Part shown: piece after piece, positions 4,377 to 17,768 of the stretch
How positions within the stretch are numbered: position 1 is the stretch's first letter
How the letters are laid out: every line of letters begins with the position of its first letter
Assembly: GCA_013298105.1 (NCBI GenBank)
Contig: JAAFJK010000329.1
Span: 1-29,158, forward strand
Reading direction: 5' to 3'
Source of the DNA: Cytophagales bacterium
Lineage (GTDB): Bacteria > Bacteroidota > Bacteroidia > Cytophagales > Microscillaceae
Length of the DNA: 29,158 nucleotides
The notes under the pieces: generated by a model
Database searches by the model: none
What the model was told of the DNA's origin: nothing
What the model saw: only the letters and a program-made list of their open reading frames with translations
Made by a program: the position numbers and the translations under genes

Positions 4377-5648
4377 GTGGATACAAACACACCAGAGAAA
4401 AAAAATAGAGGAAAAGGCATAGGACATGAGATATATCCTATGCGCGTAGTGGGCTACCTTGTGCTTTGCATTGAGTTATGGCTTGCTATGCGCATACAGC
4501 CTCCTAAGATACACTTCATCTACATAGCTTGGATAGTGTTCTTTTTTTTATATCCACACCTCATTTTTCAGATTTATCGCTATTTCAAAGCCCGCAATGA
4601 CATCGAGCGAGCTTGGCTTGTCTTAGATTTATTTTGGATAGGGATAGTAGTTGTGATGATTTCGTTTTCGCTGATGCCTACTATGGCACTGATAGTCTAT
4701 AGTACCGCTACTTGCATAGGCATAGGAGGCGTATCTATGTGGCTGAAAGGGCTGGCTACTTTGGGAGTTTCGCAACTTTTGATGTGGTTTTTTTGGGGAA
4801 ACTTTTATGTTACAAGCAATCCAAGCGTGTGGTCAAATATCATAGGCTTCATGTATATGTTTATCGGCTTCAATGCCTACAATTTTGCTTACTATAGGCG
4901 AAGCATTGCTTTCAAAAAAATCCGTATGCAGATAGAAAAGCAAAAAGCCGAGATAGCCGAACAGAAAGAAGAAATAGAATCTACACTTGGCTTAGTAGAA
5001 ATAGAACGCCAAAAATCAGACGAACTTTTGCTGAATATTTTGCCCAAAAGTATCGCTCAAGAGCTAAAAAACTATGGCTTTGCCACGCCCAAACGATTCA
5101 ATAAAGCCACCGTACTGTTTACAGACTTCAAAGGATTTACGCAAATCGTTTCAAAAATGGAGCCAGAGCAAGTCTTGGACAATCTAAACTACTGCTTTAC
5201 GGCTTTTGATAAAATTATTCGCAAATACAATCTTGAAAAAATCAAAACCATTGGTGATGCCTATATGTGTGTAGGTGGCTTGCCTACCGAAGACGAAAAC
5301 AATCCAATACGTGCTGTAGAAGCGGCTTTGGAAATACTTGCTTTTATGAAAGATTGGAAAGCAAAAAAAATCAAATCAGGCAAGGAAGTTTGGGATATAC
5401 GGCTTGGTATTCACACAGGTACAGTGATAGCGGGTGTAGTAGGTCAATACAAATTTGCGTATGATATATGGGGCGATACTGTAAATGTTGCCTCTCGTAT
5501 GGAGAGTAGCGGAGAGGCAGGCAAGGTAAATATCTCTGGCACGACTTACGAACTTGTGAAGCACCAATTTATGTGTACTTACAGGGGGGCTATCCAAGCT
5601 AAAAATAAAGGCGAAGTGGAAATGTATTTTGTGGAGAACAAAATTTAA
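4377..5648 (+). CDS. Membrane-anchored class III adenylate/guanylate cyclase
   Basis: N-terminal TM helices, then a cyclase catalytic domain (TVLFTDFKGFT, KTIGDAYMCVGGLP, IRLGIHTGTVIAGVVG, YDIWGDTVNVASRMES). The ORF as given starts on GTG at 4377. An in-frame ATG at 4440 (MRVVGYLV...) is an alternative start. Confidence 0.8.
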   Translation: MDTNTPEKKNRGKGIGHEIYPMRVVGYLVLCIELWLAMRIQPPKIHFIYIAWIVFFFLYPHLIFQIYRYFKARNDIERAWLVLDLFWIGIVVVMISFSLMPTMALIVYSTATCIGIGGVSMWLKGLATLGVSQLLMWFFWGNFYVTSNPSVWSNIIGFMYMFIGFNAYNFAYYRRSIAFKKIRMQIEKQKAEIAEQKEEIESTLGLVEIERQKSDELLLNILPKSIAQELKNYGFATPKRFNKATVLFTDFKGFTQIVSKMEPEQVLDNLNYCFTAFDKIIRKYNLEKIKTIGDAYMCVGGLPTEDENNPIRAVEAALEILAFMKDWKAKKIKSGKEVWDIRLGIHTGTVIAGVVGQYKFAYDIWGDTVNVASRMESSGEAGKVNISGTTYELVKHQFMCTYRGAIQAKNKGEVEMYFVENKI

Positions 5649-5688
5649 CATTGAGCAAAGGAAAAGTAAGGATTCTTCGAAAGTTTTG

Positions 5689-5838
5689 GATAAGGAACGA
5701 GTAAAAAATAACTTGAGAATATTTAGCCACGTTGTAAGCGTCTGTTATCGAGCTTTTACGTGGTTAGGCAATACCAACAGACGCTTACAGCGTAGCTTCG
5801 CGTGAGTGAAATTATCATGTTATTTTATTTTCATTCCT
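5689..5838 (+). mobile_element. 150-bp MITE-like element, copy 2, in the same orientation as copy 1
   Basis: 3 mismatches to copy 1. In an RNA, one stem mismatch would be a G-U wobble. Confidence 0.6.
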
Positions 5839-5900
5839 TAGTATAAGCGCGGTGCTAAAGTGGCAAACATTCGAAGAACCAAAACTTCTTAAAACAGCCA

Positions 5901-8900
5901 CTACTCCACACTCGGCAATTCAATAAAGAAAGTTGTACCCATATCTTCTTCAGTTTCGAACCAAATGCGCCCGCCTGCGTGTTCTACTGCCCGTTTGGAG
6001 AGTACCAAACCAATCCCCGAACCGCTCGACTTAGTCGTAAAACTTGGCGAAAACATCTTTTCGCGTATGTCTTCAGGTATGCCTGCGCCATTGTCTTGGA
6101 TAGCAATTTGTACCAATCCTTCGCTGTCTTGCGTGAGGGTAGTTTGTATCTGTGGTAGCCTGCCTTCAGGAATAGCCTCGAGCGCGTTTTTGATAAGATT
6201 AATAAATACACGCCCCAACAGTTTGCGGTCTGCATTGACATAGCAAGGCTTGGTAGGCATCATAAAAATTAAATTGCCTTCTGTTTCGGTATAAAGATTT
6301 TCTGTTTCTGCCAAAAGCGCGACCATATCAAACTTTTCCATAACAGGAATGGGCATTTTGGCATACGCCGAGAAAGAAGTCGCAATACCATCAAGCACTT
6401 CTATTTTTTCTAAAAGCGTGTCCATGTAACGCTTAAAAAGCTCTTGCACATCTTCTCCAAAGCTCTCCAAACGCCTTTGCATCATCTGCACGCCCAACTT
6501 CATGGGCATGAGCGGATTTTTGATTTCGTGGGCTACTTGCTGTGCCATTTCGCGCCAAGCATTCTCGCGTTGTGCCTCGATGAGTTTTTGCCTACTCTCG
6601 TCGAGGGTTTGTATCATTTTGTTGTATTCTTGTACGAATAGCCCGATTTCGTCTTTTACTTTCCACTCAAGCGGTTGATTTTGAAGCGATTGCTCATAGT
6701 CGGTGTAGGCGGTTTTGCGGACTTGCTGAGTGATGAGGCGCAAAGGCAAGGTAAGCAAACGCGAAGCAAAAAACGAAATAGCTACCAAAACTATGAACGA
6801 ACTTGAGAAAATATTGACCATCAGCGCCAGTAGCTCCATTTGCTTTTTGTTGATTTCATATTGTGCTTCAAAGAAAGGTATGCCCACTATCCCCAGCAGT
6901 TGGCGCGTATCGCCTTCATAGTTGCGGAGGGGCAGGTAAGTCGTACTAAACTCGAGCTTGCCTACCGATTCGGGCAAAATGGCATACCGATTTTTGCGCT
7001 TGCCTACCAACTCGATGGCTTGTGGATTGATGTAAGGCGCAAGCAAGTTTGCTTTTTCATAAATCGCAGGCTGGCTACTTGTGATGAGCAAACCGCCTCC
7101 ATCAAAAAGGCTAATGTCTGTGCCTGTATGTCGTGCTATGTCAAGAAGTTGTTTGTCAAACTCATCACGAGTGATGTCGCCACTTCGGAGCTTCAGCATT
7201 TGGGGCTGGAGGCTGAGGGCTACAGTTTCGCCTTTTCTAAAGTAGTTATTCTCCAAATCTTGTTGATAGTTTGCACGCATGACGTTCAGCGTTACGAGGC
7301 TGACCACAAAAAGCGGCAGGAAAAAAGCTACATTCAGGTAGATTTGTATGCGTGTAGCAAAGGTAGCGTGTACGCCATAACGACCTTTATAGACGCTGTA
7401 TATCAGTACACCCAAAAGAATGCACAATATCAAAAGCAAAAAGAAAAACGAAAAATTCGAGAAAATATCCCAAAACGCATACGTAGGCGCAGACACGATA
7501 ACGCGCTTTTTGAACCCGCCCGTTACTGCCAAATGCTCTATGCCTTGCTTTACAAAACCTTGCCTGAAGATGGCATCATCAACGAACCAACTTGTCCGAA
7601 AGTCTTTTTCATAATTGAACTCTCCCTTCGAATAGACAAGGGCTTGGTCATCATAAACGGCATAACTGTAGTGCTTTGCAAGAGGCGAAAGCGCGTAATT
7701 TTTGCCCAAAAGTAGCTCAGGATATACATTTTGGGGCTGTCCATCTATGATGCGTTGCTCAAGGTCTATCACGATTTGGGCGGTTTGCTCCTTGCCTACC
7801 GACATCTGCACAAAGGCAAGATAGCGTTTACTGCTGTTTACGCCCGCTTTGTTGATGAATTTGATGGCGGGATTGTCGGTATCGTAGTAAATTTTTGCAA
7901 ATTCTTTGCTCAAGGTTTCTATGCGCATTTGGGCATCGCCTGTAGTATAGCGCGGGAGTGAATCATTCACGCCATAAAAGTACAATTTGATGTCATAATT
8001 GGAGAAATAATTGCCCAAATATTGCTTTATAATCCTTGAACCTTGTCCCAAAGTAGGCGTTGTTTCTGTATTTTTTGAGGCAGGGGGCTTGAGGAAATTT
8101 ATAAACTCTGTATTGGTTTTGATTTGGGTAATGGCTTCGCCCAGTTGCTGTTCGGCTATAGCATCATTTTCGGGCAGTAGCATATTGCCGAAGGCGCGTT
8201 TATCTGCGAGGCTACTTTTTGCCCCAAAGCTATAAATGCTATACGTACTGACTGTAGAGGCAAGCAACGCTCCAAAAAACAAATAAATTGAGGTCGCATA
8301 TCTGAATCTTGCCAAAGCGCGAGGCAGGCGCGTAACATATATCGTGAGTAGGTAGGCAAGGTGAAAGACCATGAGCCATATACTGCTGACTTTCAACAGC
8401 CACGCACTTATCCCAAAAATCACACTTGCCACCAAAATAACTATGGCTTGGGTAGGCAAGGTAGGGGGCGCAAACTGCATACAAATCCGCGTAAAAGTAT
8501 GCAATACAAAGAAATAAAACCCCGAAAGTGCTACAAACATCACAAAACCAAAACCATTCAAGGCAGTCCACTCAAGCGTATTGGCTATTGCCAAACGCTG
8601 TTCGGGGTGCAGGAATATAGAGCCAAGCGCATTGTAATAAATCAGCGTTACCCAAAAAGTAAGAAAAACCAAAAAGCCCATCAAAAAAACGCGCCCAGCC
8701 TGCCCCACACCCAACAGCAATTTATAGGATTGCGAATAAGGGTAACTTCTCAAAAAATACATCAAAACGCCCCCAAGTACCAGCATATTCAGCGCGAGGT
8801 CGCCCAGCGAAGGCGTAAAACGCGAAGCTGGATAAAGGGCGCGATTGAACAAATCCCAGCCTGTCCACTCAAAAGGAAAAACAGCATAAATCATCAAAAA

Positions 8901-9753: not shown

Positions 9754-9894
9754 TGGTTGTCTGACAATTTTTGTGGTAGTTTTTTTTGCTCAGTAGGATA
9801 GGGTTTAAAACCCTATCCTATTGAGCAAAAAAGGCGTTTCTTGAATCCGAACTTGCTCAAAAGATATTTTTCCACAAAAGTTGTCAGACAACCA
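9754..9894. repeat. Nested inverted repeat. Outer 23-bp arms are 9754-9776 and 9872-9894 (22/23 complementary). Inner near-perfect 23-bp-arm palindrome is 9784-9830, centred on GGGTTTAAAACCC
   Basis: Read from the sequence. It lies in the divergent region between the kinase start and the low-GC R-M island. Confidence 0.6.
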
Positions 9895-10168
9895 CATTTT
9901 TTTGATATATCACAAACTGCACCGTACCGCAAATCAGCGCAAAAAACCTAAAACATATAATAGAGTTCTTGCAAAAGTGCTGTTTTTGATGCCTCACCCC
10001 TCCCCTTCTCCAAATGGAGAAGGGTTAAAAATACTTTCTCAAGAAGTCTAATTCAAAGTTAGGCATTATTTCTCAATCTAAAAAAAAATCTTGTTTTTTG
10101 TTTTTAAGTTTTTATTTTTGAAAATACTTCAGTATGTTTGCATAAAATTGATACAATTTGATATTTAT

Positions 10169-12808
10169 ATGCAGTCCGAAAATAAAAATCAAAAATTACT
10201 AACCGTAAAAGAAGCGGCTGAACTGCTGAAAGTTGCCGAAATATCTGTAAAAAGGTATGTTTCGCAGGGGCTTATTCCTTCTGTCAAGATTGGCGGAGCA
10301 AGGCGTATTGTTCAGAACGAAGTTTGGGAAGACTTTGTTAATTATTCGTCTGATAATCAAGATAATAGTCCTGAAATTATCAACGGTGTACAGTTCTATT
10401 GGTCGCAGAAAAATGCTTCTGTTGCTAATCAAATCTACAAAGAATATTGCAAAGACAATGCAGTTATTCTTGATGGCTTTTTAGGTGGTGGCTCATCTTT
10501 GTATGGTATTAGAAATACAAATTTAAAATTTGTGGGAGTAGATATTAACGAAATGCCTTATCAAATTGCAAAATTCAATTTGCAAAATATTGATAGTCAG
10601 TTTATTGACAGCTTGGAAAAGGAACTAAAAAACATACAATCGCAATTTAATGAGATTTATCACTACACTTGTAGCGATGGGAAAATTTTAGAATTTATCA
10701 AGGTTGTTTTTGATGACAAAGACAATCCACAAATCAAAATTATTCATTTACAAGATGCAGAAGGCAATCGTTTCACTTCTGAAAACTATCCTGAAGCAAT
10801 AGATTTTTATTTGAAAAACTATAAAAATTTTCAAAATATCGTTTGTGGGGATACAAATAACGGCATTGAAGGTTTAGAAAATCCTTTGCTTACCAAAAAT
10901 AGCAGAATTGCTATTAAGGAAAATATGTTTTTAGCTGATATTTTTAGCCCTATCAATTTTTTTGTTTTGTCTGAACTCAAAGAAAAAATTAAAGACAGCA
11001 AAAATCTAAGATTTATTCTTTCTTCTGTTCTACAACTTTGTAAACTTACAGATACCAAATCACAATCACAATTTCCGTTTTGGTTGCCAAAAATTGATTT
11101 GGTAGATAGAAATATCTTTGTTACAATGCTCAATAAAATACAATCTTTGAAAAAGCAAATTGGGCAAGGGCAAATTCAAGAAGTTGAAAATTTTGAAAAA
11201 CTAAAATATGCTTTTGGTAATGCCTGCCTACTGATAAACAAGCCTTTACAAAATATTACCAATGAAATTCCTGATAATTCTATAGATTTTGTTTTGACAG
11301 ACCCGCCTTATTTCGACCAAGTAGCATATTCAGAGTATGCCAAAATATGGGAGTTTTTCTGTGGTTATAAGGCAAATTTTGAAGATGAAATTATTGTTTC
11401 GCAACGTGATATTTGCCAAAGTGATGAAAAAATGTATTTAGAAAACTTGCAAAAAAGTTTTCAAGTCATTTTTGATAAAATGAAATCTCAAGCGCAATTA
11501 TTGATTTATTTTAAAGATAGCCGACCTGAAAAAATGTTTGCTTTTTTGGATATTTTAGATAAAATTGGTTTTTCATTTTTGGGGCAAGAATATTTAGACA
11601 CTGCTAAATTTACCTACAAACAAAATACTACCACCAAAACCACTTTGACAGGAGAGAGTATTTTGAAATTACAAAAGATTGAAAAACAAGAGATTATAGA
11701 AGAAGGAAACTTGCAAATTATTGAAAATTTAGGTATCCAAGAAGTAGAAAATTTAGTAATATATTTTACTAAAACATATCTTTTCGTTCATAAAGAAGCA
11801 ACCTTAAATGAAATACTAAGTAGTGGTTTGATAAAATTATTGTATGATAAAAAAGCCTTGTCATTACTTAAAAAAGCCAAAGATTTTACTACTATTTTTG
11901 AAAAAATTTGCAATTACAATGATGAAAATAGGACATATAGCCTCAAAAACATAGAAATTAAAAACCAACTTTTCTTAGGAGATTGTTTAGAAATTCTAAA
12001 AGCAATCCCTACTAATTCTATAGACTGCCTGATTACAGACCCTCCTTATAACATTTCAGGTTATGACCATAAAAAACAAATTGGTTGGCTTAAATCTAAT
12101 GATTTTTGGAAAAAACAAAAAGCCTTCAAAAAAATAGACGAAACTTGGGATAAATTTTCTGATGATGATTATGAAAGTTTTACAATAGAATGGTTATCTG
12201 AAATCAAAAGAATTGTAAAACCAAATGGCAATATTGCCATTTTTGGAAGTTATCACAATATCTATAAAATAGGTTATTTGATAGAGAAATTAGACTTAAA
12301 AACTATCAATTCTATTATCTGGTATAAACGCAATGCTTTTCCGAATGTAACACAAAGAATGTTTTGCGAAAGTACAGAACAAATTATTTGGTGTGTGAAT
12401 GAAAGCAAGAAAAATGCAAAAAATTGGACTTTCAATTACCAAAAAATGAAAGAATTAAATGGTGGTGTGCAAATGCGCAATCTTTTTGATGTACCTTTAA
12501 CCAAACAATCTGAAAGAGAATTTGGCAAACATCCTTCACAAAAACCTTTAGAAGTTTTGAATAATTTAGTGCTTGCTTTGACAAATGAAGGTGATGTAGT
12601 TTTGGACTGTTTTTTAGGTTCAGGGACTACAGCAGTTTCTGCTTTACAACATCAGCGTAATTTTATAGGTATCGAGCAAAATTATGAGTATTTGCAAATT
12701 GCAGAAAAGAGGTTGGAAAATATTGAATCTGTGATATTTAACAAACCTGAAAACGAAAAAAAGAAATCTAAAACTAAGACCTTGGGAATATTTGACAAGC
12801 CTCAATAA
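10169..12808 (+). CDS. Two-domain DNA amino-methyltransferase with an N-terminal excisionase/MerR-like HTH. Domain 1 has motif I FLGGGSS then motif IV DPPYF (alpha order). Domain 2 has DPPYN then FLGSGTT (beta order). Likely modifies both strands of an asymmetric site
   Basis: LLTVKEAAELLKVAEISVKRYVSQGLIPSVKIGGARRIV HTH. Two DPPY motifs and two FxGxG motifs. Very AT-rich codon usage unlike the flanks. Start taken at ATG 10169, preceded by a TAnnTTTG-like -7 box. Confidence 0.8.
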   Translation: MQSENKNQKLLTVKEAAELLKVAEISVKRYVSQGLIPSVKIGGARRIVQNEVWEDFVNYSSDNQDNSPEIINGVQFYWSQKNASVANQIYKEYCKDNAVILDGFLGGGSSLYGIRNTNLKFVGVDINEMPYQIAKFNLQNIDSQFIDSLEKELKNIQSQFNEIYHYTCSDGKILEFIKVVFDDKDNPQIKIIHLQDAEGNRFTSENYPEAIDFYLKNYKNFQNIVCGDTNNGIEGLENPLLTKNSRIAIKENMFLADIFSPINFFVLSELKEKIKDSKNLRFILSSVLQLCKLTDTKSQSQFPFWLPKIDLVDRNIFVTMLNKIQSLKKQIGQGQIQEVENFEKLKYAFGNACLLINKPLQNITNEIPDNSIDFVLTDPPYFDQVAYSEYAKIWEFFCGYKANFEDEIIVSQRDICQSDEKMYLENLQKSFQVIFDKMKSQAQLLIYFKDSRPEKMFAFLDILDKIGFSFLGQEYLDTAKFTYKQNTTTKTTLTGESILKLQKIEKQEIIEEGNLQIIENLGIQEVENLVIYFTKTYLFVHKEATLNEILSSGLIKLLYDKKALSLLKKAKDFTTIFEKICNYNDENRTYSLKNIEIKNQLFLGDCLEILKAIPTNSIDCLITDPPYNISGYDHKKQIGWLKSNDFWKKQKAFKKIDETWDKFSDDDYESFTIEWLSEIKRIVKPNGNIAIFGSYHNIYKIGYLIEKLDLKTINSIIWYKRNAFPNVTQRMFCESTEQIIWCVNESKKNAKNWTFNYQKMKELNGGVQMRNLFDVPLTKQSEREFGKHPSQKPLEVLNNLVLALTNEGDVVLDCFLGSGTTAVSALQHQRNFIGIEQNYEYLQIAEKRLENIESVIFNKPENEKKKSKTKTLGIFDKPQ

Positions 12809-13806
12809 TCACTAAATCGCCTTTGCTAAGAGAAACTTGTAAACGCCTAACTTCTTTGTCTTTTTCAGCATAGTTTTGGGCTTTTTCTCGAAGTTTCTCT
12901 TTTAATCTTTCTACTACTTTATCAGGTTCTGCCGAAAAAATTGTCAAAACTTCTACTTTTGTTTTATCTACAACAGCCAAAATAATTGCTTTATCCTCTT
13001 TATATTTTTCTAATACATTTGCAGAAATATCTTGAAATTGCCAAGAATATGTTTTTGAAACTTTATATTCATATTCATTCCCATGCTCGTCAAAAGCATC
13101 GTGAGAACCTGCCCCGCCCACCTTGTTCAGAATTTACATTGTGGTTAAGTTCAACCGCAACTAAAACCTCCCATATCTTATTACTTGTCAATAGGTTAGT
13201 AACATTTGTACACTTCTCTAATTCTGCGTTCAAATTGTATAATTTTTGTAGCCAAATATCATATTTTCCATTGGTTTTAGGTACTAAAATTTTTGTTTTC
13301 TGCAATTTTAAATCATTTTCTATTTGTTTTGCAGAAATATTTATCATTCGTCTTGCATTAGGTTTGCCTTTTGGTTTTCTTGCTAATAAATCGTCTGTTC
13401 TTTGTTTTAGGTACAAAGAACAAATTTTTCCGTTTACCAAAATGTACCAATCCAAAAGTGCTGGAAAAACTGTATCATCAATATGAGCAAAAACTACACC
13501 TTCAGCAAGCCCTAAGTTGCTAATTGTGCTGTCTGTGTAGTCGTTAAAAGTCCAAGAGTGGTTGCTACTTGTTTCTTTATAATGCTTGTATTCATATTCG
13601 CCTCCATCTTCATTTTTGGCATCTTTTGAGCCTGAATGTCCCGCAATTAAGTCGTGGTCGAGTTCGTTAGCGATAATAATTTCATAGATTTTTGAATTAG
13701 AGAAGATGTCATCAACGCCAAAAACTTCTAAAAAATCTGCTTGTATTTGGCGAAATTCGTTAATGAGTTGGTAAAAATGGGTTTTATTGATGGTTGTGAA
13801 CTTCAT
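12774..13806 (-). pseudogene. Restriction endonuclease candidate made of two tandem homologous domains, each with ELDHD/ELNHN ... G(S/A)GS.DA..E.G.EYEYK, possibly PD-(D/E)XK-like. It is split into two ORFs (13090-13806 and 12774-13121) by a +1 frameshift inside the second repeat
   Basis: Domain 1 reads ANELDHDLIAGHSGSKDAKNEDGGEYEYKHYKE. Domain 2 reads AVELNHNVNSEQGG | AGSHDAFDEHGNEYEYKVSK, and the alignment continues across the frame change at GGTGGGCGGGGCAGG (about 13105-13121). Convergent 35-bp overlap with the MTase 3' end. Confidence 0.5.
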
Positions 13807-13967
13807 TGATAAATATGGTAGTTAGTAATCTTTGCAAAGTTACAAAGTTTTTACATACCTTTTGGGTTATATTGTTATAAAATGGCAGGCTTGCTAATGT
13901 TGAAGCATCAAATATTTTAACGACAGGTGGTAACTCCATAAATTCTTACCTTTTGGTGTAAAGTATC

Positions 13968-14006
13968 AAAAACCCGCAAAAGCGGAGGGCTTTTGCGGGT
14001 TTTTAT
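13968..14006. terminator. Hairpin ACCCGCAAAAGC-ggagg-GCTTTTGCGGGT with A/T runs on both sides, acting as a bidirectional terminator
   Basis: Inverted repeat plus flanking A5/T5. Confidence 0.55.
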
Positions 14007-17718: not shown

Positions 17719-17746
17719 AACACGCCCGAAAAGGCGTGTTTTTTAC
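17719..17746 (+). terminator. Rho-independent terminator CACGCC-cgaaaa-GGCGTG followed by T6
   Basis: Stem-loop plus T-run immediately after the lipoprotein stop. Confidence 0.6.
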
Positions 17747-17768
17747 AAAAATAATTATTTCAAAAATT

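Follow-up and report, generated by a model that had tools for sequence, protein, structure and literature searches.

The block between 10.13 and 13.86 kb of the window (the whole 29,158-nt stretch of DNA analysed here) is quite probably a compact, horizontally mobile and horizontally acquired Type II restriction-modification (R-M) cassette (Type IIT/IIA). It comprises an intact gene, in which an HTH domain precedes two DNA methyltransferase (MTase) halves of opposite motif order, and a convergent gene for a tandem PvuII-like endonuclease. Since a 1-nt insertion splits the nuclease gene, the cassette is most likely in decay, leaving a solitary methyltransferase that regulates itself. The PvuII-like partner nuclease, its frameshift and a direct-repeat element upstream of the MTase gene are new compared with the first-pass annotation of this DNA. 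All feature coordinates are summarized in Table 1.

Table 1. Features of the restriction-modification cassette and its right border (positions in the window).
Feature	Position	Strand	Remarks
Putative −7 box TATGTTTG (Bacteroidetes-type TAnnTTTG)	10133..10140	+	Read from sequence
Putative operator TGATAC-aatt-TGATAT (two 6-mers, 10-bp period)	10149..10164	+	4 nt before ATG
Fused HTH-M(alpha)-M(beta) DNA methyltransferase gene	10169..12808	+	879 aa, intact
Excisionase/MerR-like HTH_17 domain	10196..10309	+	aa 10-47; Pfam PF12728
Alpha-order amino-MTase half	10385..11947	+	aa 73-593
Motif I FLGGGSS (alpha half)	10478-10498	+	aa 104-110
Invariant SQSQFP(F/Y)W of the inserted domain	11060-11083	+	Domain of ~200 aa within alpha half
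Motif IV DPPYF (alpha half)	11300-11314	+	aa 378-382; ~270 aa beyond motif I
Beta-order CcrM-like amino-MTase half	11960..12772	+	aa 598-868
Motif IV DPPYN (beta half)	12038-12052	+	aa 624-628
Motif I FLGSGTT (beta half)	12611-12631	+	aa 815-821
Restriction endonuclease gene, tandem PvuII-like, single chain, disrupted	12774..13806	−	ORF 13806-13090 + ORF 13121-12774
Catalytic motif, nuclease half 2: D-AFDEHGNEY-E-Y-K	13062..13100	−	D236, E246, K248 (intact-homologue numbering)
Frameshift site, G-rich run GGTGGGCGGGGCAGG, one extra base	13108..13122	−	DNA alignment with L004, L005, L006
Catalytic motif, nuclease half 1: D-AKNEDGGEY-E-Y-K	13585..13623	−	D62, E72, K74
Possible −7 box TAACTTTG of the nuclease's own promoter (weak call)	13835..13842	−	Partly conserved in L006
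Terminator hairpin of neighbouring 706-aa gene	13968..14004	+	Marks right edge of cassette

The mobility of the cassette is deduced from a drop in GC content (30.6% in 10130-13860 vs 40.5% across the remaining window) together with flanking genes that differ from genome to genome when the loci of relatives are compared. The first-pass annotation had already proposed an AT-rich, horizontally acquired block, and both observations agree with this view. On the right side, likeness to other cassettes stops between 13860 and 13968. The triad of alpha MTase, beta MTase and convergent nuclease is kept in approximately 50 loci from Bacteroidota, Pelagibacteraceae, Melainabacteria, Actinomycetota, Oligoflexia and others. 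Neither a tRNA at the cassette borders nor a recombinase or integrase among the flanking ORFs was found, and no BREX genes lie near the cassette. A plasmid origin was checked against PLSDB, which returned no DNA or protein match, and one unannotated phage-like contig gave a match. Intact copies of the system are also present in the cultured Hugenholtzia roseola (MTase WP_051203169.1, nuclease WP_027001115.1).

The MTase ORF was listed from 10091 to 12808 on the forward strand, with an ATG at 10169 and a stop codon at 12806-12808, and its product has full-length homologues with up to 93% identity (best in the protein collection). Across 37 fused homologues, the motif I/IV pairs of the two halves hardly vary. 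The earlier reading of a single polypeptide made of an HTH, an alpha-type and a beta-type domain was confirmed: the HTH is real, and both halves match N6A/N4C MTase models (PF01555) with opposite motif orders. In distant relatives, the same MTase parts are encoded by separate adjacent genes (alpha ~509 aa, beta ~255 aa). The HTH belongs to HTH_17, with PF12728 E-values of 3.8e-8 (whole protein) and 5.7e-10 (aa 1-60 alone) and scores of 33.9-39.8 bits vs a cut-off of 27. It also passed the TIGR01764 'excise' model (29.0 vs 28.8) and weakly matched BldC (NF033787). The resemblance to MAD1 of the MADS defence system (NF047737, 25.7 bits vs a cut-off of 80) was rejected, as it reflects the shared HTH_17 fold only, and a C5-cytosine MTase was discarded because no such match was found and both catalytic halves are amino-MTases (PF01555). 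The protein is a three-part fusion and would act as a self-regulated double adenine MTase, with adenine specificity predicted for both halves.

The C-terminal half contains a full PF01555 domain in normal order, with aa 618-847 corresponding to profile positions 1-221, and scored 162.5 bits when scanned alone (cut-off 26.7), which places it in the beta class of N6A/N4C MTases. Its best relatives in sequence and structure are the beta-class adenine MTases CcrM and M.HinfI (GANTC), and the CcrM structure PDB 6pbd matched it with an E-value of 1.9e-50. However, the NCBIfam CcrM model NF050803 reached only 243.8 bits (E 2e-72) against the equivalog cut-off of 830, and the match covers profile positions 3-266 of 350, the C-terminal domain of CcrM being absent. 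The half was therefore not assigned to the CcrM equivalog, the cell-cycle MTase for GANTC, and with a score so far below the cut-off, GANTC specificity cannot be assumed.

The N-terminal half is more distant from known enzymes. When aa 61-580 were scanned alone, PF01555 scored 36.9 bits (cut-off 26.7) in two circularly permuted stretches, with aa 77-135 matching profile positions 162-220 (motif I end) and aa 372-514 matching positions 1-111 (motif IV end), so the opposite motif order is shown directly. With motif I before motif IV, a large insertion between them and a Rossmann MTase fold, the half falls into the alpha class. The D12-class (Dam-like) model PF02086 scored the whole protein at 19.1 bits (cut-off 22) and gave a partial match of 22.4 bits on the fragment aa 61-280 (profile positions 9-129 of 253). 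Structural neighbours were generic Rossmann MTases only; the inserted domain gave no structural match, and the half is without a close solved relative. Two BREX candidates were rejected, namely PglXI, for which only aa 257-491 matched profile positions 381-611 of 919 (E 2e-21), and the DUF1156 MTase NF042963 (15.8 bits vs a cut-off of 1000).

Upstream of the MTase gene, a putative promoter and a conserved direct repeat can be recognized. In all Bacteroidota loci, TAnnTTTG, the −7 consensus of Bacteroidetes promoters, precedes the first repeat unit by 8 nt, and the loci from other taxa carry TATAAT-like boxes instead. The repeat TGATAC-N4-TGATAT has a single match within the window. Exact TGATAY-N4-TGATAY occurs once per locus in 16 HTH-bearing loci, always upstream of the MTase start, and is absent from approximately 47 HTH-less loci. 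The number 16 refers to the 17 HTH-bearing loci listed minus the incomplete L011/L031, where the motif is present too. Due to this strict distribution, the TGATAY repeat is likely the autorepression operator of the MTase gene, and the co-occurrence suggests that it is bound by the HTH. An N-terminal HTH combined with a putative operator starting 8 nt past the −7 box corresponds to the layout of a self-repressing HTH-MTase. The first-pass annotation had cited N-terminal HTHs on MTases as autoregulators, and section 17 of PMC3874152 indeed documents such autorepression. The palindromic operator that it envisaged at this promoter was not found: the inverted repeats near the MTase promoter (I3, 10102-10118/10179-10195) are AT-rich and unconserved, and the conserved element is the direct repeat with its 10-bp period.

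A direct repeat fits the HTH family. BldC, an excisionase/MerR-like wHTH of the same superfamily (HTH_17, TIGR01764), binds direct repeats head-to-tail (PMC5859096), which matches the 10-bp-period site found here. BldC, however, is a free-standing developmental regulator of 68 aa with the repeat unit AATTxxxx(C), whereas the cassette HTH forms one domain of an enzyme, with TGATAY as the repeat unit. The HTH-bearing enzymes M.SsoII, M.Ecl18kI, M.EcoRII, M.ScrFIA and M.MspI are C5-cytosine MTases, in contrast to the amino-MTase with an HTH_17/excisionase-type domain described here. The R and M genes of Ecl18kI are divergent according to PMC2760811, and those of the cassette are convergent. Unlike in SsoII/EcoRII-type systems, the putative operator is a direct repeat and no element was seen at the R promoter. 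No copy of the TGATAY repeat was found upstream of the nuclease gene, so the repeat does not account for a delay of R expression after transfer.

The partner nuclease is encoded by two ORFs of 238 aa (13806-13090) and 115 aa (13121-12774), convergent with the MTase gene, which are internal repeats of each other (BLASTP E 2e-9; halves ~34% identical). An intact homologue, P0001, has 343 aa and is 93% identical to the reconstructed nuclease. The catalytic residues D62/E72/K74 and D236/E246/K248 are invariant in alignment A2, and those of half 1 align to D58/E68/K70 of PvuII. The family profile matched the PvuII structures 3ksk and 2pvi with an E-value of 1.9e-5 and aligned D/E/K residues. The window fragment alone scored 18.1 bits with PF09225, below the cut-off of 25, and precomputed PF09225 matches exist for most homologues. 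The AF2 model (pLDDT 92.4) had the engineered single-chain PvuII 3ksk as its best PDB match over the full length (E 2e-14), with a TM score of 0.62-0.70 (TMq 0.62-0.64, TMt 0.67-0.70), and each half gave a Foldseek probability of 1.00 (TMt 0.60-0.71). Homology, the aligned D...E-x-K residues and the predicted PvuII fold place the nuclease among the PvuII-like enzymes, and its own family counts more than 600 members at 90% clustering. No REase model of PADLOC matches it, all family members are annotated as 'hypothetical', the names of homologues being 'hypothetical' or generic, and the literature offered nothing tying it to a named enzyme beyond a general review, nor anything on Hugenholtzia methylation.

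PvuII itself is a homodimer acting on palindromic CAGCTG and is accompanied by an m4C MTase and a C protein. The cassette nuclease shares the fold, the D-x9-E-x-K spacing and the aligned catalytic residues with PvuII and scPvuII 3ksk, on which the 343-aa chain superposes; however, it is a natural tandem duplication, whereas 3ksk was engineered. Residues invariant within each half differ between the two; half 1, for example, contains SSNHSW and half 2 has no N-H, implying two different half-sites. With engineered single-chain PvuII as the best fold match, the nuclease is better placed in Type IIT, where an asymmetric site goes with two different catalytic sites, than in FokI-like Type IIS, and two different invariant catalytic sites were indeed found in one enzyme. 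The Type IIT systems BmgBI, BsrBI, AciI, BssSI and BbvCI in section 35 of PMC4081073 have single-chain or heterodimeric nucleases and likewise a pair of different catalytic sites of similar size. As in these systems, the nuclease halves resemble recognition-plus-catalysis modules, and the two MTases, which that section describes as separate or joined, are one or the other depending on the lineage. No link in sequence or specificity between these named enzymes and the cassette nuclease was found.

In the proposed mechanism, the recognition sequence would be asymmetric, and each MTase half would methylate an adenine on one of its strands, in keeping with the DPPY motif in both halves. As the enzyme accumulates, the excisionase-type HTH would bind the two TGATAY repeats past the −7 box, and the MTase would shut off its own transcription. 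The nuclease would act as a monomeric pseudo-dimer of two diverged PvuII-like halves, each with a D-x9-E-x-K site, so that one chain could suffice for cleaving both strands, either inside the asymmetric site or at it. We infer an asymmetric methylated motif from this arrangement; neither the window nor the cassette gave informative counts of candidate sites (GANTC, GAGTC, CACGTC, CCGCTC and others) for the recognition sequence, and 20-kb loci from many genomes give too little power for k-mer avoidance.

Other readings of the individual parts were considered. A FokI-like Type IIS system cutting a fixed distance away from its site is highly improbable, since two PvuII-like catalytic/recognition halves make up the entire 343-aa nuclease, leaving no separate cleavage domain, and the whole chain has its fold match in single-chain PvuII. 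Fused double MTases are nevertheless classic for FokI and AlwI in section 34 of PMC4081073, which also presents M.FokI and M.AlwI as carrying two amino-MTase modules per chain, presumably one per strand of the asymmetric site. The comparison with M.FokI drawn in the first-pass annotation thus stands for the link to asymmetric sites (PMC4081073, sections 34-35) and fails for the nuclease; moreover, the cassette MTase differs from M.FokI and M.AlwI by its alpha-then-beta order, the HTH in front and the PvuII-like partner. It is also very unlikely that the alpha half is degenerate and serves the CcrM-like half as a recognition or scaffold module, methylation then affecting only one strand or a symmetric site. 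Its weak match to MTase profiles and the missing solved relative could point this way, and a single CcrM-type enzyme can methylate both strands of GANTC. Similarly, the MlyI system uses one GASTC MTase (PMC4081073, section 34). However, motif I (D-x-F-L-G-x-G-S-S) and motif IV (TDPPYFDQVAYSEY) of the alpha half are invariant or near-invariant in the 37 fused and 62 stand-alone homologues, and most lineages keep the alpha MTase as a separate gene beside the beta MTase, a pattern expected of two active enzymes. Slightly less improbable, yet still unlikely, is that the TGATAY element is no HTH operator and instead encodes an N-terminal extension, acts in translation or as part of the mRNA, or is the methylation target of the MTase in a methylation-sensitive promoter switch. 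Some gene callers do start the MTase at an upstream TTG or GTG and read through the repeat (P0121, P0127, P0130, P0137 and others), and section 17 of PMC3874152 reports methylation-dependent promoter control of M genes. However, the distance from repeat to ATG (4, 9, 11 or ~40 nt) and the reading frame vary between loci, and L010 carries an in-frame TGA inside the repeat, so the repeat is not coding. The HTH-less loci, which share the same alpha/beta MTase and nuclease families, all lack the motif, which speaks for the HTH rather than the catalytic domains as its reader.

The frameshift allows two interpretations as well. With the intact P0001 as query, tblastn returned two HSPs in frames −2 and −3, and the closest relatives (L006-L008) keep an intact 343-aa gene. 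Since the extra base sits in a short G-rich run, it could be an assembly error. Alternatively, the break maps to a surface loop of lower confidence in the nuclease model (pLDDT blocks 81-83) with an intact catalytic motif on each side, so that complementation between the fragments of 238 aa and 115 aa is conceivable. A fully functional R-M system, be it through an assembly or homopolymer error or through reassembly of the fragments into an active nuclease, is nonetheless rather doubtful. The other large ORFs of the window are unbroken and give no sign of systematic indel errors, and the second fragment needs a GTG start inside the first ORF. Furthermore, three related loci carry independent, unambiguous lesions of the nuclease gene, namely a MITE-like insertion of approximately 220 bp (L004/L089), a stop at codon 2 (L005) and an almost complete loss (L093), from which it follows that loss of the nuclease is recurrent in the clade. 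The MTase gene is intact in the window and in all of these relatives. Restriction has thus presumably been lost in the organism of the window, and with the nuclease gene frameshifted, the MTase may in effect stand alone as an orphan.

The cassette is an ordinary kind of system with uncharacterised details and does not overturn the current understanding of R-M systems. As a tentative extension, the nucleases may form a widespread natural family of single-chain PvuII-like Type IIT enzymes with new asymmetric specificity, the MTase being controlled by a BldC/Xis-like head-to-tail direct-repeat switch, and the Cytophagales clade repeatedly losing the nuclease but keeping the self-regulated double MTase, perhaps for epigenetic regulation. 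If this is true, each nuclease half could be converted to a strand-specific nickase, and the HTH/direct-repeat switch would be a control mode undescribed so far for R-M systems. For enzymology, the family represents the natural counterpart of engineered single-chain PvuII and a plausible source of new asymmetric specificities and nicking enzymes. With regard to regulation, the strict co-occurrence of HTH and direct repeat offers a candidate operator, open to direct testing, for an amino-MTase with an excisionase-type HTH. In annotation, the two 'hypothetical' ORFs of 238 aa and 115 aa become one broken restriction gene, and the 879-aa protein would be renamed accordingly as a putative self-regulated double adenine MTase.

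The fused methyltransferase (M) carried all four catalytic motifs at the positions claimed by the first-pass annotation, as read in its translation, and the N-terminal helix-turn-helix (HTH) proposed there was recovered by HTH_17 and by the 'excisionase family' model TIGR01764, both above their cut-offs (29.0 against 28.8 for the latter). Alpha and beta domains of opposite order were also found, both halves matching the amino-methyltransferase model PF01555. The C-terminal third scored 162.5 bits as a complete PF01555 domain of standard beta order, and aa 61-580, scanned alone, reached 36.9 bits (threshold 26.7) in two stretches of swapped order, with aa 77-135 aligning to profile positions 162-220 and aa 372-514 to positions 1-111. 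This swap directly demonstrates that the N-terminal catalytic half is circularly permuted and has the alpha order. Among 37 fused homologues, the motif I/IV pairs of the two halves were invariant or near-invariant, and DPPY in both halves suggests N6-adenine as the predicted modified base. The best relatives of the C-terminal third are CcrM-type enzymes (PDB 6pbd, E 1.9e-50; NF050803, E 2e-72), hinting at a GANTC-related strand motif for this half, although its 243.8 bits fall well short of the NF050803 equivalog cut-off of 830. Counts of candidate sites in the window gave no pointer to a recognition sequence. Within the alpha half, aa 257-491 (window 10937-11641), comprising an inserted domain and the motif IV region, matched the BREX type 3 methyltransferase PglXI (PADLOC, E 2e-21) and, weakly, DUF1156 anti-phage proteins, which suggests a common ancestry of this module and BREX methylases.

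Features of the window (nucleotide positions in window numbering; aa, residues of M)
Feature	Position	Strand	Remarks
R-M cassette	~10.13-13.86 kb		M and R
M	10169-12808	+	879 aa from first ATG; frame 10091-12808 (ORF list)
HTH_17	aa 10-47		Pfam, E 3.8e-8 (whole protein), 5.7e-10 (aa 1-60)
FLGGGSS	aa 104-110		motif I, alpha half
DPPYF	aa 378-382		motif IV, alpha half
DPPYN	aa 624-628		motif IV, beta half
FLGSGTT	aa 815-821		motif I, beta half
Putative TAnnTTTG promoter box	10133-10140		TATGTTTG
Direct repeat, putative operator	10149-10164		upstream of M start
R ORF 1	13806-13090	-	238 aa, immediately downstream of M, convergent
R ORF 2	13121-12774	-	115 aa, immediately downstream of M, convergent
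MITE-like repeat, outer arms	9754-9776 / 9872-9894		23 nt, 96% complementary
MITE-like repeat, inner hairpin	9782-9806 / 9808-9832		25-nt arms
Further short hairpin	~10002-10025		cccttctccaaatggagaaggg
Menshen-like cassette 1 (PADLOC)	17736-19827	+	NsnB, NsnC
NsnB, cassette 1	17736-18911	+	E 9e-99
NsnC, cassette 1	18913-19827	+	E 2e-42
Major Vault Protein homologue, bacterial	22812-25292	-	826 aa; MVP_shoulder E 1e-30, Vault_3 E 3e-9
Menshen-like cassette 2 (PADLOC)	25419-27995	-	NsnA-like, NsnB, NsnC
NsnA-like ORF, cassette 2	27995-27396	-	199 aa, partial vs profile
NsnB, cassette 2	27399-26245	-	E 8e-100
NsnC, cassette 2	26252-25419	-	E 9e-30

The partner nuclease gene (R) occupies two ORFs, the downstream one overlapping the 3' end of M by 35 bp. 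The ORFs share 34% identity (E 2e-9), and each has the pattern G-x-S/G-x-DA-x5-G-x-(Y/F)-E-Y-K and, after it, SW-x-F-x-D. Of the two repeat units, the second starts within ORF 1 and runs on in ORF 2 in a different frame. Removal of one base joins them into a 343-aa protein, and intact homologues exist in a Cytophagales MAG (343 aa, 93% identity) and in Hugenholtzia roseola (342 aa, 88%). More than 600 relatives were found, all annotated as 'hypothetical'. In an alignment of 56 family members, two D-x9-E-x-K triads were invariant (D62/E72/K74 and D236/E246/K248), and the family profile matched PvuII sequences in the PDB with D58/E68/K70 of PvuII aligned, the best match being the engineered single-chain PvuII 3ksk (E 1.9e-5). 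In Foldseek, the AlphaFold model (pLDDT 92.4, pTM 0.88) likewise came closest to 3ksk, aligned along the whole chain (E 2e-14 and TMq 0.62-0.64 over 348 columns), with PvuII monomers next, matching each half. The two triads, the PvuII profile and the 3ksk fold match together identify R as a predicted natural covalent pseudo-dimer of PvuII-like units. Its halves have diverged, each with its own conservation pattern: N82-H83 is invariant in SSNHSW of half 1, and half 2 lacks N-H, its loop being shorter. Such a pattern would be expected if two different half-sites were read.

The review by Pingoud et al. (PMC4081073) describes Type IIT enzymes as having two different catalytic sites and cleaving asymmetric sequences within or beside the site, with two methyltransferases that are joined in some systems and separate in others. 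The R pseudo-dimer agrees with this definition. The first-pass annotation had linked the fused methyltransferases to asymmetric sites and FokI-like Type IIS systems; an asymmetric site is also predicted from the Type IIT-like nuclease architecture, which does not match a FokI-like one. Its observation is confirmed and its interpretation was essentially right. The cassette is a Type II R-M system of known kind, Type IIT-like with joined methyltransferases and a methyltransferase-borne HTH, while the family as a whole appears uncharacterised. Worth recording are the natural single-chain PvuII-like nuclease, the strict linkage of a direct-repeat putative operator to the HTH and the broken R.

In a 50%-identity representative library, the R family condensed to roughly a dozen clusters of full-length members and some fragments, with weak matches to PvuII-size proteins of ~160 aa and a few other two-stretch proteins of ~300-355 aa. 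Among the latter, P0304, P0325, P0326, P0338 and P0346 (303-355 aa; weak two- or three-stretch matches) may represent other distant tandem PvuII-like single-chain families, and matches of ~156-171 aa (e.g., P0342, P0345, P0348) may be single-unit relatives. A tandem homologue (40% identity, 85% of query) also occurs at 7389-8201 of MT836948.1, an 8.2-kb unannotated 'Bacteriophage sp.' contig from human faeces in the phage collection.

The window carries an intact M beside a frameshifted R. An intact homologue gave two tblastn HSPs in adjacent frames, and alignment with the DNA of three related loci traced the shift to one additional base within the G-rich run 13108-13122. Since the break falls in a lower-pLDDT loop of the model, an assembly error or functional complementation by the fragments retains some weight but is rather unlikely, and independent R lesions beside an intact M recur in related loci: a ~220-bp insertion bounded by 12-13-bp inverted repeats (9850-10073 of L004, same contig as L089), a TAA directly after the ATG (L005) and a remnant of 37 residues (L093). 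Because of this recurrence, genuine decay of R is the likeliest reading. The L004 insertion, which divides R of a Cytophagales MAG into ORFs of 146 and 238 aa, is AT-rich and looks MITE-like (inverted repeats CTTTCCGCACCC / GGGGTGCGGAAAG).

Upstream sequences of M were fully divergent between relatives except for a ~40-bp block. Wherever the HTH is present, even at only ~36% identity in that region, this block holds a direct repeat TGATAC-N4-TGATA(C/T). One exact copy, always upstream of the M start, was present in 16/16 listed HTH-bearing loci (about a dozen non-redundant sequences) as well as in the truncated L011 and L031, and in none of ~47 loci with an HTH-less alpha methyltransferase. 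The palindromic operator anticipated for the promoter region does not exist; this direct repeat is found instead. Some gene callers place the protein start upstream of it, but a coding role is ruled out by the varying spacing and frame of repeat and ATG and by an in-frame TGA inside the repeat of L010. Bacteroidota loci show a TAnnTTTG box, the established Bacteroidetes promoter consensus, with the repeat 8 nt on, and other phyla a TATAAT-like box directly upstream of the repeat; from this placement, the repeat should overlap the transcription start. Autorepression through an N-terminal methyltransferase HTH, as the first-pass annotation had stated, is established for EcoRII, SsoII, Ecl18kI and ScrFI (PMC3874152), and BldC, an excisionase/MerR-like wHTH, binds direct repeats head-to-tail (PMC5859096). 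From the co-occurrence of HTH and repeat and these two precedents, we infer that M autorepresses through the putative operator. No related element was found upstream of R. In L092 (~7445-7580), an ORF with an XRE-type HTH end (…EKGERNVSITVLEKLSKALNIPIKDFF) abuts the nuclease start. Possibly this ORF, which the window lacks, encodes a C-protein-like controller in the L092 lineage.

Scanning metagenomes and genomes for the HTH-plus-alpha region yielded some 60 loci with an alpha methyltransferase, nearly all in the order alpha methyltransferase, beta methyltransferase, convergent nuclease. In most lineages, including Pelagibacteraceae, Melainabacteria, Actinomycetota and Deltaproteobacteria, the methyltransferases are encoded separately, by genes for 509 and 255 aa whose stop and start codons overlap; fusion, with the HTH in front, is seen in the Cytophagales/Bacteroidota clade and a few others. 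A small ORF (73-104 aa) precedes the alpha gene in the HTH-less split systems L001 (5599-5877(-)), L002 and L003; it had no Pfam match and could be a stand-alone HTH (sequence …KKKLSLKRISEILFERGYRS…). In the HTH-bearing metagenomic L012, tblastn matched the beta region (5411-6165) in two adjoining segments (aa 1-137 and aa 138-252 of the query), so that M may be frameshifted there.

The proposed horizontal acquisition is well supported: the cassette is AT-rich, as claimed (GC 30.6% vs 40.5% in the rest of the window), and its neighbours differ in every genome examined. In the window these are the genes of a histidine kinase and of a 706-aa protein; L006 has TsaD and an M56 peptidase at this place, L005 has aconitase and an SDR, and L004 has a giant protein and an S8 peptidase. 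Neither a tRNA nor a recombinase was found next to the window cassette. Together with the R-M cassette, two Menshen-like cassettes make the window a defence-rich region, the second of which likewise falls in a stretch of low GC (0.28-0.32 at 25.5-28 kb). A bacterial Major Vault Protein homologue is also encoded, and a MITE-like nested inverted repeat is located at 9754-9894, in the interval separating the R-M cassette from the histidine-kinase gene.
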